Of a stretch of DNA of 64,000 bases, positions 5,969-38,081 are shown piece by piece. The stretch covers positions 3,424,001-3,488,000 of the forward strand of contig CBDCKW010000009.1 of the NCBI GenBank assembly GCA_965218435.1, in the 5' to 3' direction. The notes beneath the pieces are model-generated. The model was given only the letters and a program-made list of their open reading frames with translations. It was not told where the DNA came from and did not search any database. The position numbers and the translations under genes are program-made. The first letter of the stretch is position 1, and every line of letters starts with the position of its first letter. This DNA comes from Truepera sp. Its GTDB lineage: Bacteria > Deinococcota > Deinococci > Deinococcales > Trueperaceae.

Positions 5969-6913
5969 GTGAGCGTCCTACGACCTTTTGCAGAGACCGA
6001 CTACCCCGCTTTTACCGCGCTCTATAACCGCTGCCGTCCCGAAGCGCCGGAGAGTGAAACGTCAATAAGGGCGTTTGACAACGCCTATGCTGACGACGAA
6101 CTGCTCAATCTTGTTGCTTTAGAAGGTGACAAACTCGTCGGCGCGGTCTGGGCGCACCGTGATCAGGCGGGCGAGAGGCAGGTGCGGCTCGACATGCTCG
6201 CTGAGCCCATCATGCCCCTTGCCGAAACGCTCTACCGGGTGGCGCTGGAAAAGCTCGAGCCTTACCATCCCTCAGCCCTGATTGTGCGAGTACGCGAAAA
6301 CTGGACGGACTGGCTGGACTTTTATGACGGCAAAGGTTTTGTTGAACTCGAGCGGATGTGGGAGTCTCGGCTCGAGCTCGCTACCTTCAGCCCCGAAAGA
6401 TTTAAGGAAGCTGCAGCACGTATAGCCGACTCGGGCATCACCCTCGGTACCCTTGCCGACTTGCCCGATACGACCGCAACGCAGCGGCGCTTGTACGGAA
6501 CAATCATCCAACTTCTCAGCGACGTGCCTTTCTATGAACCTCTCAATATCTGGCCTTTTGAGCTATGGCAAAAACGGTTTTGGAGGAATCCGGCACGCCG
6601 CCCTGAAAGCTTCTTTTTGGCGTTTGACGGCAACGATACCGTCGGGGTAAGTGAGTTGCGAACTGCTTCTCGCCCCGGTTGGCTCAGCACCGGCCTTACC
6701 GGAGTTAAACGCACACATCGTCGGCAAGGCGTCGCGCTAGCCCTCAAGGTTCGGGCCGCGCAGTACGCGCAAGCTGCCGGATTCGAGATCATTTCAACGC
6801 AAAACCACACGACGAACCGCGCCATGCTCTCTATTAACGAAGCATTAGGCTTCGTCAAAGAACCCGCGTGGATACGTCTTAAGAAAACTTTTGAGATAGC
6901 GAAAGCAGATTAG
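5969..6913 (+). CDS. Tandem GNAT acetyltransferase
   Basis: LTGVKRTHRRQGVALALK, N...NRAMLSINEALGF. Confidence 0.85.
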   Translation: MSVLRPFAETDYPAFTALYNRCRPEAPESETSIRAFDNAYADDELLNLVALEGDKLVGAVWAHRDQAGERQVRLDMLAEPIMPLAETLYRVALEKLEPYHPSALIVRVRENWTDWLDFYDGKGFVELERMWESRLELATFSPERFKEAAARIADSGITLGTLADLPDTTATQRRLYGTIIQLLSDVPFYEPLNIWPFELWQKRFWRNPARRPESFFLAFDGNDTVGVSELRTASRPGWLSTGLTGVKRTHRRQGVALALKVRAAQYAQAAGFEIISTQNHTTNRAMLSINEALGFVKEPAWIRLKKTFEIAKAD

Positions 6914-32108: not shown

Positions 32109-33878
32109 TTAGAACCCTGGGGCTACAGGTTCGCTATTTCGATATGCTTCGAACTGCGGATTTCTATCGAACCACTCCGAACGTTTCTGATGCCAAAGGT
32201 TAATCAGACTGGTTCTGCTAACTGTAGACGTTGGATATTTGACTGTAAAGCATCCGGCAGGGAGATCAGCAACGTCCGAGTTAAGCCTATTGATATAGGT
32301 TTGATCGCTGCCTAAGTAGATGACAAGGTTGTTGCGGCAACCAGTTTCGTCAAAAGCATCCCACGATGAGGCATAAGTGGTATTGCCGTTTTTCTCGGTA
32401 TTAATATGACCACTATTTTCCTTCGTTATAAGAAAAACATTATCTTGCAGCGTAAGGCGACAACCTTTTCTAGCGTAGTAGGTAATTGTTCCATCATTCT
32501 TCTTCGTATCCTGATTCCACTTAAAAAGTTGATAGTGTCCAGGCGTGCCTTTAGTCGGGTCTACGTTGGACTCAGTTGCTGTACCGTGTTGCGGCCTGAG
32601 TGCCAGCAAGCTATTTTTGATAGTGAAGGGCACGTTCGCTTCTACAGCCGTAGTCCCTTTGCGGCAGGAGAAACCTGTATAGGCCCAGTCAACGAGAACA
32701 TTGTCCACCACACCGGCGTTAAAAAAGTCGCTTTCGACGGCATCATCACCCGCATGTCTGACATACGAGTCTCTTACCGTCCATCCGCTCGTATCCCTCT
32801 TGATAGCAAAGGCGTCCCCAGTTGTGCCTATAGCAACATTCTCAATTGTGGTATTTTTGCTACCACCAGCACTGAGGTCGCCGAAGTTTGGAACGCCAAC
32901 TAAGATGCCGTTTCGTGCGTGGAACGCCCCATCTTTTGAACATTTCGCTTTTTCTGCATCGGTTGCGTTAAGGTAGCTGCAATCCCAAACGGAGTTGTCC
33001 CCATTAGCAAGATTAGGCGCATAGAACCCACTGGAAAGACATAGATAACCCGCCGGATTTCCAACAATCTCTAGTCCTTGCACCCCACTAAATCTAGACC
33101 CCTTAGCGTTGACACCCGTTTTAGCAGGCTGTCCGGTCAGTTTTTTCCCGGTGTAGGTTTGATTCATCCAGTTCACTATGTTGGTTGAGCCGGTTAGACA
33201 TGATGCTCCGGTAGTCGTTGGTAAGGCATATATAACCTCGAGCGCAGGCTTACTACCAGGCGTTCCCTCGAACGACTCAGCGATGCGGCTGCCCGTGCCT
33301 TCAATCGCAAATGTGAGTGAATCAACTGCACCGTTGTTAATTAGCGGCTGAACCAGCGAGCTCAGGTCGGGCGACTTGACTTCGGGACTCTGAAGCGTCA
33401 TTGTCGTCTTCCATGACGGCACAGCCCAAGAGACGAATGTGTTGGTGAGGGAGCGTGAGGTGATGTCCTTGTTGGTTGTCTTAAAGGTATTCGACGTATA
33501 GCTGCTATGCATCCGAATTGACATCGTTGCAGAGCCGTTACTATCGGCTCTTGGCAAGAAATATAAGTTAGCCGACTTTATAACAGCACCTTTTGGAATA
33601 CCCAAGTTCGTAAATCTAACGCCGACAGCAGTGCTACCACTCGCGTTCGAACCGAGATCGAGGTCGGTGCTATCTAATACCATCGTGCCTGTACTCAACG
33701 TTTCTTCAGCATCGTCGGTGGCTATAGCTATTCTTTGCCACGCTGTTGAGTCTGCTTGGGAGGTAAGTTCAGGTTCCTGAATTCCTGGCGAAGTTTGAAG
33801 ACCGCTACTACACGCCGCTAAGATGAGAATCGCGGAGAATGCGGTGCCTAGAGTAGTTCCATCTTTACGCTTCAACAT
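32109..33878 (-). CDS. Surface lipoprotein: N-terminal beta-sandwich (DDAEE...GVRF..IPKGA.I) plus C-terminal right-handed beta-helix-like domain
   Basis: Lipobox LAAC; WTVRDSYVRHAGDDAVESD, VLVDWAYTGFSCR shared with the neighbouring paralog. Confidence 0.7.
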   Translation of the reverse strand: MLKRKDGTTLGTAFSAILILAACSSGLQTSPGIQEPELTSQADSTAWQRIAIATDDAEETLSTGTMVLDSTDLDLGSNASGSTAVGVRFTNLGIPKGAVIKSANLYFLPRADSNGSATMSIRMHSSYTSNTFKTTNKDITSRSLTNTFVSWAVPSWKTTMTLQSPEVKSPDLSSLVQPLINNGAVDSLTFAIEGTGSRIAESFEGTPGSKPALEVIYALPTTTGASCLTGSTNIVNWMNQTYTGKKLTGQPAKTGVNAKGSRFSGVQGLEIVGNPAGYLCLSSGFYAPNLANGDNSVWDCSYLNATDAEKAKCSKDGAFHARNGILVGVPNFGDLSAGGSKNTTIENVAIGTTGDAFAIKRDTSGWTVRDSYVRHAGDDAVESDFFNAGVVDNVLVDWAYTGFSCRKGTTAVEANVPFTIKNSLLALRPQHGTATESNVDPTKGTPGHYQLFKWNQDTKKNDGTITYYARKGCRLTLQDNVFLITKENSGHINTEKNGNTTYASSWDAFDETGCRNNLVIYLGSDQTYINRLNSDVADLPAGCFTVKYPTSTVSRTSLINLWHQKRSEWFDRNPQFEAYRNSEPVAPGF

Positions 33879-33988
33879 GTTTATCCTCTCAAGTACTCTC
33901 AGCCAAAAGTTATGGAAGACTTTGAGTCTGCTGTCAGCACAACCTGAACATAAGTGAGTGAAGATAAATCAAGCCAACTTGCTGTAGA

Positions 33989-34020
33989 AATCAAGAGGCA
34001 GTATATGCTGCCTCTTGATT
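33989..34020 (-). terminator. 13-bp-stem hairpin between the two lipoprotein genes
   Basis: AATCAAGAGGCAG-N6-CTGCCTCTTGATT. Confidence 0.75.
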
Positions 34021-34037
34021 AATCTCGAGTTTCACGT

Positions 34038-35657
34038 TTAGTTTACTCCTGGCTCCTTCAGGTTCTTGTAGGAGAAAATTTGTGAGTTTCCACTATGCCT
34101 ATCGAACCAAGCCGTGCGTTTCTGCTGCCAGAAGCTAGTTGCGGTAGACCCTTGCACAAGCTTGAAACAGTCTGAACCAAACCTGCTTCTCAAAGCTGCA
34201 AGCCTACTTGCGCTAGTCTTATTATTAGTGTTGTAGTCACCGCTACCTGTATAGACTAGAGTAACATTGCTACACTCGGTGACATAATCAGTTGGGCTCT
34301 GAGTTGATCTGAATACGTCATTGCTGAGTTGCATATAAAAAACGGTGTTTTTGAGACGTAGTTTACAATTGGGCTTGCTATCTTGCTCGAATTTGAACAT
34401 AAAGAGGTGGTTGGGGTTGTTTGGGTTTAACCCTCCAGAAGTACCCACCTGCTTCTTCAGTGCAATTAAGCTGTCCTGAACAGTCACAGTACCGGGAGGA
34501 TTTAGTGACGGATTGCTGTCTCCACGGCATGAAATGCCCATGTATGCCCAGTCCACTAAGACATCATCTATAAGACCATTGTACTTGGGATCGTTTTCTG
34601 CAAAGTCGTCGCCAGCATGTCGAACATACGAATCACGTATAGTCCAATTATTTGCGTTACCTCTATAGCTTTTGAAAGAGAAGGCGTCACCTGTTTGCTG
34701 TATAGCTATATTTTCGAGGATAACGCTGGGCGAATTTACGACTGTGACGGCGAAGTCATTATGATAACCAGGGTCTGCCCATTGGAGGTTATCACTCTCA
34801 CCAGTATCGAATTTTCCTCCCGAAAGGCACAAGTTGGACTTGTTGTCTTGCACGGTGAGAATTGATACGCCTCCATTAGAGTTTGGCCGCACAGTAAAAG
34901 TCTTGCCGGTTGCGCTGACTCGAGCATCAAGGTCTTTGCCTTGAACATAGTATTGTTTACCTGTTGGACTGATGTTATAGATATTGCTCGCGCCTTGTAG
35001 ACAAGAGGTAGAAGGAGGTGGGGGGACATCATAAGTCACAGTCAGCTTAGCAGCGTTGGCGCTGTTACCGTCATAAGAAGAAGCTTTGCGTTGACCAGAG
35101 CCTGCAATAATGAAGGCCATCGCGTTACCTGAAGCCCAGCTTGACTGATTGACCAGTTCTTGCACGACCGACCGAAAGTCAACCGTGCTGTAAGTGTTGC
35201 CACTTGTCCAAGCACCTGGCACCCAGTTGGTTACCGCTGTTGTTTTGGGGCGAGCACTGATCTGCGGATAGCTAGAAGTGAATTCGGGTGCGTTAGCTTC
35301 TTTGTCACCGCGAACAGTCAACGATGTTGACCTAGATGTGTTCGTAACGGCGACGAATTCAAGTTTAGCACCTGTAATGGTTGCACCTTTAGGAATGTTG
35401 ATACCGGTGAAACGAAGCCCTGTTTGTTGAGGTTCGGACTTCTCACCGAGGTCGAGAACTGTGCTGTCGCTATAATAAGGTCCGCTGGACTGCTCTTCTG
35501 CGTCACTAACGGCGTTAGGAACCGTTTTGGTAACTGTAGTAGCTTGGGTAGTCAAAGTAGGCTCTTTGTCTGGAGTATCAGTCTGAAGACCACTACTGCA
35601 CGCCGCTAGGAGAGCCAAAGTTGCCACCAATGAACTAAGTTTCAGCCAAGATTTCAT
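34038..35657 (-). CDS. Surface lipoprotein paralog (same two-domain architecture)
   Basis: Start MKSWLK after AGAAGGG; LAACSSGLQT; WTIRDSYVRHAGDDFAEND, VLVDWAYMGISCR. Confidence 0.72.
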   Translation of the reverse strand: MKSWLKLSSLVATLALLAACSSGLQTDTPDKEPTLTTQATTVTKTVPNAVSDAEEQSSGPYYSDSTVLDLGEKSEPQQTGLRFTGINIPKGATITGAKLEFVAVTNTSRSTSLTVRGDKEANAPEFTSSYPQISARPKTTAVTNWVPGAWTSGNTYSTVDFRSVVQELVNQSSWASGNAMAFIIAGSGQRKASSYDGNSANAAKLTVTYDVPPPPSTSCLQGASNIYNISPTGKQYYVQGKDLDARVSATGKTFTVRPNSNGGVSILTVQDNKSNLCLSGGKFDTGESDNLQWADPGYHNDFAVTVVNSPSVILENIAIQQTGDAFSFKSYRGNANNWTIRDSYVRHAGDDFAENDPKYNGLIDDVLVDWAYMGISCRGDSNPSLNPPGTVTVQDSLIALKKQVGTSGGLNPNNPNHLFMFKFEQDSKPNCKLRLKNTVFYMQLSNDVFRSTQSPTDYVTECSNVTLVYTGSGDYNTNNKTSASRLAALRSRFGSDCFKLVQGSTATSFWQQKRTAWFDRHSGNSQIFSYKNLKEPGVN

Positions 35658-35797
35658 ACTTTCCCTTCTACATTCTTGCCGTAACGCCTGCGGACAACGT
35701 TCGTTTGGCGCGGTTGAGCTGTGAATTGCAAAAACACGCCCCCGATCAGCATTCAAGCTGACCCCGTTAGCAACCTCCTTTTCTACTCAACGAAGCT

Positions 35798-35913
35798 AAG
35801 GTAACAAAGCGAAGTTACATAGTCGTTACTTACCAGCTGGCTGTAGCGCAACTAGTCAGGTAACAAAACGGTAATCACCGGGTAACGCTTTGTTAACGAA
35901 CACCTGCCAAACT
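35798..35913. promoter_or_regulatory. Divergent promoters with 11-bp-phased GTAAC direct repeats
   Basis: + strand GGTAAC/GGTAAT/GGTAAC/GTTAAC at 35859, 35870, 35881, 35892; - strand GTAAC (GTTAC on +) at 35825 and 35814; each array lies 10 nt from a TG-extended -10-like hexamer. Confidence 0.65.
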
Positions 35914-35949
35914 TGTAATCAGCTAGGACAATAAAGAAGGGGTGAACTG

Positions 35950-36102
35950 ATGAGCAAAATAGGTAGGGTTTTGCTAAGTATTTTACTCTTGACGAGCTTG
36001 GGGCTCTCCATGGCCGCAAATTCTAGCAGTTTAGGTGTGGGAAACGGTTCTAATGTACCTAAGCAAAGTCCGATCGTTTCGGTGTCTGCCAAAAGAAATT
36101 AG
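35950..36102 (+). CDS. 50-aa secreted peptide, putative signalling-peptide precursor
   Basis: MSKIGRVLLSILLLTSLGLSMAANSSSLGVGNGSNVPKQSPIVSVSAKRN; SD AAGAAGGGGTG; Sec-type signal; stop overlaps the regulator stop. Confidence 0.65.
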   Translation: MSKIGRVLLSILLLTSLGLSMAANSSSLGVGNGSNVPKQSPIVSVSAKRN

Positions 36103-37829
36103 ATATCGAGTTCTAGCCGGACTCGAGCACGCCTGCCCGCTGCGACACTGCGGCGAGGGTCTTCTGCCGGAAAACGCTGCGTCAGCTCTTCCCACAGTTC
36201 CAGGTCAAAAGGCATGATTTGCGCCAGTTCCCAGATAGCTTCTATATTTCCAGAGTCGGTGACAGCGGTATGAAGTTCGGCTTCTAACAGCCCTCTGAGA
36301 TGAACGATCTCCGGGGCGGTTGACTGCGGGAGCAGGGGACCTCGATACATCTTTATCGCGTCATAAAACTTTCCTTGGCCGAGATAAGTCTCGAGTTCGG
36401 CGACGTCCGACCATACGGATGACATAAGCCGGTACGGGCGCGAGCTTATCTCCACCCCTGCTTCTTTGCGTAGTCGGTGCAACTCGACTCTTAACGATGC
36501 TGTTTGTGATTCTCCGTAGAGTGCTTCACTTAAAGCCTCAGCGTCGTAACCGCTGGGCCGTAGCGCGAGTAAGGTCAGCAGTTCCAGACTGCGGCTTCTA
36601 ACCGTTATAGGGCTGCCTTGGAGATAGAGTTCAGCCCTGCCTAGTGTAAAAAGACGAAGTGAGCGGACGCTCGCAAGCGTAGCTTGTGATTCGCTAAAGG
36701 CTGCTCCGGCCAGTAAACGTATCCCTGTAAGGGTCAGTAAGGTTTTTGCATTGTCTATTGCGGCTCTGATAGATGTTCTGGCACTGTCGTTCTGAAAATC
36801 TAAGGGGTCGAGGTACAAAGCTGACTCTGTTGCCAATAAATTGTTTCTACCCTTGCCGGCAAAAAACTGGTGGGCGCTGAGGAGGTGCCCCACGGCTTCT
36901 TCAGAAGGCCATAGTGAGATGCCTAGGGCTAACCGAGCACGTTGCTGATGATATTCAGAGAGAGAATCCGTCACTGAAAGTGTTGCCTCAGCTTGTCTCT
37001 GCGCCTCTTCCGGCCGGTTCAGCGCATATAGCGCCCTTACATAACCGTGAGTCAGCCAAGACCTCAGAGCCCTGGGAGCTTGCGCAAGTTCCTGCTGGTA
37101 AACCCGTAAGGCGTCGTCATAACGTTCGGTCGCTTGATAAAGGTCTGCTAACGTTGATCTTAGTAGTGCTTTCTGCCGTGAATGAGCTGAGTTGCCCACC
37201 GCTTCGTCGGCTTTTATGAGTTCTTCCTCAAGCCCCTCAAGGCTACCGGTCAAGATTTGCAAGTAGGCTTGGAAGTTGACGATGATCAGCGTCAAGCCCG
37301 GATGCGCTGTTCTGTCCCTCGCAAACTGGAGCCACCCCAAAGCTTTTTTGAAGCTTCCCATATCCGTATAGGCGGTAGCAAGGGCGGCTGCATTTCTGGC
37401 TTCGGCGTAGACGTCGCCTACCTCTTCAGCGGCTATCAAAGAGGCTTGCAGTGCTCGCAAACGAGCCTGAGGATCGGCAGAAGCCAAGCCCAAATGATAC
37501 ATCGTGTGCGCAGTCGCGCGTAACTTGGTCGCCGCTACCGCCTTGCGGTAGTAACCTTCGTCATCCCCCTGGTAGGACTGCAACAGGCCCTCGAGCACGG
37601 TAAGGTCAGCTTTTTCGTCATCACTCACACTAGAAAGTGCGCGGGCAAGGTGTTGACGGGCAAGCATGCTCTGGTCGAGGTTGATAAGCGCCGCTACGAC
37701 ATAAAAAGTTACCCCTTCGGGCCAAGGGGCAGGCAGCTGTCTGCTGAACTCTATAACCTCTTGGTTGAGGCCCCGGGCAAAAAGTTGACGAATAGTTAGG
37801 TAAGCTTTTTGGTCAATAGGCTCTGACAC
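36099..37829 (-). CDS. Transcriptional regulator: TPR-like helical N-terminus plus C-terminal OmpR/SARP-type winged helix and BTAD-like segment
   Basis: LRLFTLGRAEL, SLELLTLLAL.P.G, LSEALYG, SLRVELHRLRK, SDVAEL, YRGPLLP. Confidence 0.75.
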   Translation of the reverse strand: MSEPIDQKAYLTIRQLFARGLNQEVIEFSRQLPAPWPEGVTFYVVAALINLDQSMLARQHLARALSSVSDDEKADLTVLEGLLQSYQGDDEGYYRKAVAATKLRATAHTMYHLGLASADPQARLRALQASLIAAEEVGDVYAEARNAAALATAYTDMGSFKKALGWLQFARDRTAHPGLTLIIVNFQAYLQILTGSLEGLEEELIKADEAVGNSAHSRQKALLRSTLADLYQATERYDDALRVYQQELAQAPRALRSWLTHGYVRALYALNRPEEAQRQAEATLSVTDSLSEYHQQRARLALGISLWPSEEAVGHLLSAHQFFAGKGRNNLLATESALYLDPLDFQNDSARTSIRAAIDNAKTLLTLTGIRLLAGAAFSESQATLASVRSLRLFTLGRAELYLQGSPITVRSRSLELLTLLALRPSGYDAEALSEALYGESQTASLRVELHRLRKEAGVEISSRPYRLMSSVWSDVAELETYLGQGKFYDAIKMYRGPLLPQSTAPEIVHLRGLLEAELHTAVTDSGNIEAIWELAQIMPFDLELWEELTQRFPAEDPRRSVAAGRRARVRLELDI

Positions 37830-37835
37830 GTAGTC

Positions 37836-38081
37836 TCACGCTCCTATATCGTCTGAAGCTAGCTCGGTGTGGCCCTCACCCAAGCTCAGCCGAGCGGCAT
37901 ATTCAGACGCCCTTGCAAGTTGACCAAGTAGCGTCGTTTTACCGTAACCGGACGGGGCTGGCAACACTAAAAGATTGGCGTCGGAGGCTCGGATAAGGCG
38001 GTCTAAAAGACTACTGTGCGCGATTTCAGCTTGAAGCGGGCGTAGCCACAAATCTGTGTGATTTTGTAAGCATTTGGTCAT
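37836..38081 (-). pseudogene. Truncated N-terminus of a MalT-like STAND ATPase regulator
   Basis: LLDRL...LLVLPAPSGYGKTTLL Walker A, then stop at 81 aa, 6 nt before the regulator start. Confidence 0.6.

Follow-up and report, generated by a model that had tools for sequence, protein, structure and literature searches.

Is the small secreted peptide encoded beside a TPR-containing regulator the signal that this regulator reads? The question is raised by a block (positions 32109-38081) of a 64,000-nucleotide stretch of Truepera sp. DNA (contig CBDCKW010000009.1, phylum Deinococcota), the whole of which is called the window here. An initial annotation had postulated that the block encodes an analogue of the RRNPP peptide-signalling systems, built on an OmpR/SARP-type DNA-binding domain. 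Gene pairing, protein fold, and operator patterns support this postulate and suggest that the two genes probably constitute an RRNPP-like cassette, in which a TPR sensor is joined to a C-terminal SARP activator. Every open reading frame (ORF) that the annotation had listed was found where it had been placed. The argument turns on the following elements.

35937-35944, plus strand: Shine-Dalgarno-like sequence AAGGGGTG of the peptide gene, similar in L031-L034
35950-36102, plus strand: candidate propeptide of 50 amino acids (aa), with a Sec-type signal (residues 1-22) and a 28-aa tail
36099-37829, minus strand: regulator, 576 aa, GTG start; candidate peptide receptor and activator

The two genes converge with a 4-nt overlap, as had been claimed. 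The peptide ORF also bears out its first description as a 50-aa product with a Shine-Dalgarno (SD) sequence, a Sec-type signal, and a tail of ~28 aa: a basic n-region is followed by an uncharged h-region and by S-M-A directly before the tail, signal peptides being called here by rule, from the n/h/c composition pattern. It could be argued that this is a chance antisense or otherwise spurious ORF in a low-GC block, given that it matches no Pfam or NCBIfam family above cut-off and has no paralogue by tblastn. However, convergent ORFs of 43-45 aa with an SD and a signal lie at the same place in L031-L034, where the regulator is 70-74% identical and the neighbours are the same, and ORFs at this position are additionally present in L117 and L118. 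The uncorrected ratio of nonsynonymous to synonymous changes (pN/pS) in the window's clade (five orthologues) is 0.44 for the signal and 0.80 for the tail; elsewhere, the 14 post-signal residues of a Deinococcus-like clade give 0.12, and the signal of another clade gives 0.06. The positional orthologues, the signal values below 1 (0.44 and 0.06), and the enrichment over controls given next effectively refute the idea of a chance ORF, which is left very improbable.

The pairing of peptide and regulator was scored at 85 loci, each flanked by 500 bp or more on either side and chosen by score among the 150 matches listed out of ~350. This set also takes in nine metagenome loci, the window, and the window's paralogue; eleven short-flank loci and L015 were dropped. 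The absence of a small secreted ORF beside regulator homologues, which the initial annotation had named as grounds for giving up the idea, is not what was observed. A strict filter required an ORF of 28-60 aa within 800 bp, preceded by an SD and combining a basic n-region and an uncharged hydrophobic stretch with a hydrophilic tail. Such an ORF was found at 56 of the 85 loci; when 130 neighbouring genes were put through the filter, 3 had one, as did 18 of the 2507 long ORFs on the main contig. The pairing reaches Thermus and Deinococcus. It lies downstream of the regulator at 29 loci, upstream at 27, and on both sides at none. A loose filter yields 66 of 85 regulator loci versus 21 of 130 neighbouring genes. 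For other families of the phylum the strict filter gives 13/39, and the loose filter 25/39 versus 9/48 controls. None of 15 loci that match the C-terminal SARP module only has such an ORF anywhere. Several of the misses among the 85 are ORFs that overlap the regulator end or lie 1.3-2.6 kb distant, and some loci have none. As a separate observation, one clade (L065, L084, L092, L109-L111, L127, L128) carries a conserved 33-aa signal-peptide ORF, co-oriented with the regulator and 0.3-2.6 kb upstream of it.

The regulator had been described as an N-terminal TPR region followed by a C-terminal winged helix. This description stands as far as it goes; the C-terminus additionally contains a BTAD-like domain and thus comprises a whole SARP module. 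In the AlphaFold2 (AF2) model (mean predicted local distance difference test score, pLDDT, 91), a TPR superhelix (~5-364) and a linker helix precede an OmpR-type winged helix (391-474) and the BTAD-like helical domain (475-573). By VIA-align, residues 1-365 match MalT domain III best (Z 24.9, root-mean-square deviation (rmsd) 4.2, 332 aligned), then a eukaryotic TPR protein (Z 24.1), phage phi105 Rap (21.9), AimR (21.4), and NprR (19.3), and residues 359-576 match the AfsR SARP (Z 14.7, rmsd 4.9, 194 aligned) and EmbR (Z 13.1). On such models, fold alone would not choose between a MalT and an RRNPP kinship for the TPR region. Pfam TPR matches to the regulator are weak and under cut-off, Trans_reg_C is matched in 2 and BTAD in 0 of 30 members, and Atlas neighbours bear BTAD or YTH3_C. 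The family profile, which gathers 572 clusters at E <= 1e-30, matches NprR (E 5e-4) together with generic TPR proteins.

The GTG start is supported because homologues at 86-92% identity measure 575-576 aa. Those with names come from Truepera and Thermus. Of 128 genomes examined in the family, 117 have a homologue, as do 147 of 251 sampled across the phylum; each tally counts the unpublished G090 as one genome, on which nothing else here depends. Lengths range from ~480 to 900 aa; Thermus forms have ~490 aa, and the majority have 810-900 aa and an additional N-terminal domain. That domain has no Walker A motif, its start resembles a P-loop that is decayed and degenerate at best, and profile comparison with MalT-like ATPases gives a probability of 1.6% (E 0.03). 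The 576-aa regulator has no P-loop NTPase domain. Asn185 is kept in 100 of 139 homologues and Asn146 in 75, which is consistent with peptide binding in the TPR groove.

How the regulator might act is suggested by the 290-bp region between the peptide gene and the gene of lipoprotein B, in which two opposed GTAAC arrays are conserved.

35798-35829, minus strand: predicted regulator-activated promoter of lipoprotein B; two GTAAC repeats with an 11-bp period, plus -10 TACCTT
35859-35897, plus strand: predicted regulator site before the peptide gene; GGTAAC, GGTAAT, GGTAAC, and GTTAAC with an 11-bp period
35908-35913, plus strand: -10 box predicted for the peptide gene, CAAACT; orthologues have TANNNT here

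The array directed at the peptide gene has four copies (35859-35897) and the one directed at lipoprotein B has two (35814-35829), all with an 11-bp period; in both, the distance from the start of the final repeat to the -10 box is 15 nt. The geometry of the lipoprotein B promoter is identical in the window and in L031-L035 (6/6). Direct repeats in 11-bp units over the -35 are the classical SARP site, according to the part of PMC10972967 available. The same arrangement recurs in a set of 85 curated peptide promoters, different from the 85 loci above and composed of the strict hits, less five ORFs that were judged wrong, together with 15 promoters picked by eye, with duplicates removed. An exact 5-mer repeat at distance 11 is present in 60 of these 85, compared with ~17 after shuffling and 8-29 at other distances, so that the peak is at 11 only. 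In three clades, TANNNT stands at a fixed offset in 30/31, 5/5, and 4/5 of the promoters that have a repeat pair; the one departure in the last clade is the window. A further 2, 3, and 2 promoters of these clades have no repeat pair. The repeat sequence differs by clade (TGAAGCG, GCAAC, GTAAC, TTAGC) and varies along with the recognition helix, a descriptive statement given that kin share labels. A scan for the sigma-70 consensus gave nothing above chance. A genome-wide scan for the full repeat plus -10 pattern, which was written post hoc from the two sites, found no further sites, and the other lipoprotein paralogues are without the pattern. The predicted regulon looks local, because within the genome the full pattern is unique to these two sites.

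These arrays fit the earlier prediction of autoinduction coupled to a surface-protein output, in that repeats with SARP geometry face both the peptide gene and lipoprotein B. In the mechanism proposed, the regulator would bind the GTAAC repeats over the -35 of the two divergent promoters, as the sequence pattern suggests, and activate both genes. The 50-aa product would be exported by Sec and cleaved after Ala22, and its tail might then be trimmed to ~8-12 residues counted from the cleavage site; the first 8-12 residues after Ala22 are thus a tentative candidate for the window's mature signal. The peptide would build up outside the cytoplasm and be re-imported by an Opp/Dpp-type ABC transporter, and the genome does encode 16 family-5 solute-binding proteins. 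Once inside, it would fit the TPR groove and switch the SARP module, more likely in positive feedback than off. It is considered likely that the peptide is the regulator's ligand, and as to the sign of its effect, activation is distinctly favoured over inhibition. The output would be a surface glycan-binding lipoprotein of lyase fold, plausibly serving polysaccharide foraging or matrix remodelling at high density.

The elements on the lipoprotein side, and one ORF outside the circuit, are as follows.

32109-33878, minus strand: lipoprotein A, 589 aa, Cys23; paralogue of B
33989-34020, strand unassigned: 13-bp perfect hairpin between lipoproteins B and A, read from the sequence and without a U-run; terminator or processing site
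34038-35657, minus strand: lipoprotein B, 539 aa, ATG start, lipobox, Cys20; predicted direct target
35658-35792, minus strand: leader of lipoprotein B, ~130 nt, conserved and structured
37836-38081, minus strand: relic of a MalT-like ATPase gene, 81 aa; outside the circuit

As the initial annotation had noted, lipoproteins A and B are paralogous (33% identical). Its claim that both share a divergent promoter with the peptide gene applies to B and does not extend to A, which lies downstream of B, behind the hairpin, and has no GTAAC repeat pair of its own. Lipoprotein A would be co-regulated only if transcription passes the hairpin, which is not among the results of a terminator scan. Each of the five orthologous loci has only one lipoprotein gene at this place, the best match of B; in two of these loci the sequence is cut off within this gene or shortly behind it. 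Neither A nor B matches a Pfam or NCBIfam family above cut-off. The AF2 model of B (pLDDT 88) consists of a beta-sandwich like a carbohydrate-binding module (CBM; DNRLRE-like) and a right-handed beta-helix of polysaccharide lyase/hydrolase fold. The former matches the CBM of chondroitinase 8wab (E 1.6e-5), with DNRLRE itself under cut-off, and the latter matches alginate lyase 6kfn (Z 18.6) and Pel9A (Z 17.9). The leader of B, in which 27 pairs were counted, 2 of them compensatory, has a closing stem GTTGAG/CTCAAC and no Rfam match; it is possibly a cis-regulatory RNA. Elsewhere in the genome, the lipoprotein paralogues at G000:C9:1747836 (minus strand) and 2667520 (plus strand) share a conserved leader of ~120 nt that is distinct from that of B, and a further pair, near 2996600 and 309560, has another short motif in common upstream.

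Surface lipoproteins are the output of the window's clade only. Of 31 hand-picked proteins that were scanned, nearly all of them peptide neighbours, 6 are EAL, 4 HD-domain, 5 radical-SAM, and 1 ABC proteins, and the peptide gene persists while these neighbouring outputs change among EAL/HD-GYP, radical-SAM, and thiopeptide genes. On a plasmid of Deinococcus sp. KNUC1210 (L190, NZ_CP092194.1; genes MF271_RS20585/20590), the pair flanks a cluster of radical-SAM/thiopeptide type that has two separate precursor ORFs; the divergent promoter contains two 11-bp repeat pairs in opposed orientation. The pair adjoins a radical-SAM/MFS operon on a plasmid of T. thermophilus JL-18, where an unannotated ORF converges on the regulator gene TTJL18_RS11855, and in Deinococcus the peptide gene closes a radical-SAM operon. 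In L118 (L118:4513-6630), a secreted ORF of 76 aa, a DUF5819 gene, and the gene of a membrane protein lie on the target side, an arrangement that resembles an Sdp-type antimicrobial peptide cluster.

The peptides themselves also differ by clade. Those of one large clade end in [IL]A-D/G-x(7-10)-D-x-G, and the mature motif occurs in tandem, with three copies in L100 and two each in L101 and L116 (there are masked stretches in L070 and L107). In downstream-type clades the conserved part directly follows the signal, and tails go down to 10-11 residues. Thermus-like loci (L139, L145-L148, L151-L155, L160, L176, L179-L191) have C-x3/4-C directly after the signal, which suggests that these peptides may be disulfide-cyclised signals; many Thermus-like peptide ORFs overlap the regulator 3' end, by up to ~75 nt. 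A search with the single regulator for related loci in the genome contigs confirmed none. The same genome has a second system (G000:C9:1753489-1756405), in which a signal-peptide ORF of 38 aa with GCAAC-type repeats comes after an 815-aa regulator paralogue, in the same orientation; in relatives an HD-domain gene is next. At G000:C9:3810221-3813727, a 1006-aa regulator whose N-terminus is like that of a classical SARP stands divergent to small SD-led secreted-type ORFs of 50 and 84 aa. Peptide pairing may extend beyond the regulator family.

It should be noted that several facts speak against a peptide-signalling cassette. The pairing is incomplete, with 29 of the 85 loci lacking an ORF under the strict filter and 19 under the loose one; moreover, the loci are related by kinship and were picked by score, so that the counts are not independent, and the hit at L037 is doubtful. 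One clade with ABC-type neighbours shows no detected peptide, and in another the peptide is 1.3-2.6 kb away. Within the window's own clade, the tails are poorly conserved (pN/pS 0.80) although the TPR region is ~70% identical, and the window's peptide -10 box, CAAACT, departs from the consensus. A partial Mantel analysis of 33 loci relates the mature part of the peptide to the inner helices (partial r 0.32), and gives 0.34 for the signal part, so that the correlation is not specific. In L035, the peptide ORF (6710-6850) is broken, its signal being frameshifted and its tail ending at a stop codon once 12 residues have been read, and the regulator, operators, and lipoprotein are intact; this locus is possibly a signal-negative variant or, given frameshifts elsewhere in that assembly, in part an assembly error. 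Binding, expression, and maturation of the peptide are predictions. A co-fold of the TPR region (1-390) with peptide residues 21-50 scored 0.02, and as a single pair without controls it counts neither way.

Three other explanations share the view that the peptide is real. The first two turn on its destination and its role. The outer membrane hinders the exchange of 1-kDa peptides and may confine the signal, and the peptide could be a ligand whose loop is private: periplasmic, and taken back up by the cell that made it or by those next to it, it would serve as a timer or else to sense secretion, confinement, or the state of the envelope. The biochemistry would be that of the cassette proposed above and only the ecology would differ, so that the probabilities of the two overlap. 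The diderm envelope, the hydrophilic tails, and the absence of a dedicated exporter from the window's block are consistent with such a loop, which is possible but not probable; the many divergent peptides, the tandem copies, and the bacteriocin-type and cyclic di-GMP (c-di-GMP) outputs are, however, typical of population-level signalling. Alternatively, the small protein may be a mere output of the regulator, such as a secreted effector, a surface peptide, or the precursor of a ribosomally synthesized and post-translationally modified peptide (RiPP), with the TPR region sensing another ligand, for example, an oligosaccharide released by the lipoprotein. MalT domain III, the top match of the TPR region (Z 24.9, level with the 24.1 of a eukaryotic TPR), senses maltotriose; the target lipoprotein is of glycan lyase fold, the regulator's predicted targets include the promoter of the peptide gene, and a Deinococcus peptide stands at the end of a radical-SAM operon. 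Yet the peptide is kept across unrelated outputs and geometries and is absent where the SARP module alone is shared (0/15), the thiopeptide cluster has precursor ORFs of its own, and tails of just 10-11 residues exist. A mere output is thus rather unlikely, although it is the chief competitor of the proposed cassette.

The third explanation is a sub-case of the proposed cassette with the opposite sign. Following the logic of Phr or AimP, the regulator would be active in its apo form, and accumulated peptide would shut off both the peptide gene and the lipoprotein. Rap and AimR, the closest peptide-binding folds, are peptide-inhibited, the 576-aa form is without the N-terminal domain of the 810-900-aa forms, and the peptide-less L035 retains its target. 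Against this, an Rgg/SHP-like layout with RiPP outputs usually means activation, and feedback inhibition is judged unlikely, if less so than a mere output.

The setting of the block bears on its history. Its GC content, described at the outset as lower than that of its flanks, is indeed 49.5% versus 57%, a value as low being reached by 0.3% of 657 6-kb windows of the main contig. Nevertheless, the low GC is not a sign of a recent horizontal island, because the neighbouring genes are common to relatives: the epimerase is kept in L031-L035 and trmFO in L032, L033, and L035. The ORF at 37836-38081, which matches the NCBIfam MalT model (E 5e-7), shares the regulator's reading frame, with a TGA in between, and it was considered as the N-terminus of the regulator, read through this codon. 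This was rejected, in that the GTG is where homologues start and the match of the ORF is to a separate gene, ~1000 aa in length. In relatives, a separate gene for a MalT-like P-loop ATPase regulator lies at this place, intact in L031 and L035 (1003-1016 aa), broken in L034, and absent in L032 and L033; forms broken by insertion sequences occur among relatives. By this comparison, the 81-aa ORF is a relic of such a gene, not a circuit component.

A broader hypothesis, for and against which the evidence seems evenly balanced, is that of a phylum-wide, independently assembled peptide quorum-sensing language of the Deinococcota. A TPR sensor, possibly derived from a MalT-like STAND regulator minus its ATPase, would be fused to a C-terminal SARP activator; each clade would have its own Sec-exported pheromone and 11-bp operator, and the systems would control c-di-GMP turnover, RiPP/bacteriocin clusters, or surface glycan lyases. 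If so, cytoplasmic-receptor peptide signalling would exist in diderm bacteria, hidden from RRNPP detectors by its architecture, and Thermus and Deinococcus would gain a cell-cell language. Likely switches for silent thiopeptide and radical-SAM clusters would have been named, and many orthogonal sets of peptide, receptor, and operator, some of them thermophilic, would be at hand. The predicted operators, -10 boxes, and peptides make the system directly testable in cultured strains.

How does this cassette compare with known systems? With the RRNPP(A) systems (Rap-Phr, NprR-NprX, PlcR-PapR, Rgg-SHP, AimR-AimP) it shares a TPR fold at Z 19-22 to Rap, AimR, and NprR, tandem pheromone copies, and local targets that include RiPP clusters. 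The window's peptide has the n/h/c pattern with S-M-A, a Sec signal predicted by rule that is kept in orthologues, and its gene adjoins that of a receptor with TPRs (4-nt overlap in the window; adjacent in 56/85 homologues). The effector, however, is a SARP module, not an XRE-type helix-turn-helix (HTH) or a Rap bundle, the host phylum is diderm, and the operators are 11-bp direct repeats. Tandem pheromone copies are recorded for RRNPPA propeptides in the part of PMC11343458 available. As set out in the available part of PMC10075063, the RRNPP criteria are a propeptide of 10-100 aa and a receptor of 250-500 aa with a C-terminal TPR region, and RRNPP_detector discards receptors with an N-terminal TPR. 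The window's propeptide of 50 aa lies within these limits, whereas its receptor, at 576 aa, is beyond them (the ~490-aa Thermus forms are inside), with the TPR N-terminal (5-364) and the effector C-terminal (391-573). The cassette is not filed as RRNPP because receptor length and domain order differ from these criteria.

With SARPs such as AfsR, EmbR, and ActII-ORF4, the regulator has in common a winged helix followed by a BTAD-like domain (359-576; Z 14.7 and 13.1 to AfsR and EmbR), and, as a sequence pattern, repeats of 11-bp period over the -35. It departs from them in that the module is C-terminal, behind the TPR region; the known SARP layout is N-terminal, and a secreted-peptide partner is not mentioned for SARPs, in the part of PMC10972967 available. 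MalT-type STAND regulators offer the closest TPR sensor (MalT domain III, Z 24.9), and the N-terminus of the 810-900-aa forms is like a decayed P-loop. However, there is no Walker A motif, the window's protein is without the N-terminal domain altogether, and the output domain is a SARP module, not the LuxR domain of MalT. The lipoproteins share both of their folds with beta-helix polysaccharide lyases/hydrolases that carry a CBM, and differ from them in having 8-15% identity and no Pfam family.

The available part of PMC9765709 contains nothing on MalT or other phyla. No description of a TPR-SARP/peptide system was found in the literature, subscription journals and bioRxiv supplements lying outside the search. 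The feature is real, and by its sequence it is probably a variant architecture of peptide signalling through a cytoplasmic TPR receptor, for which peptide binding is predicted. In the part of PMC10075063 referred to above, signalling of this kind is described as a Bacillota trait. What was known is thus RRNPP in Bacillota; what would be new is a second TPR-receptor architecture, whose regulator is present in 147 of the 251 sampled Deinococcota genomes.

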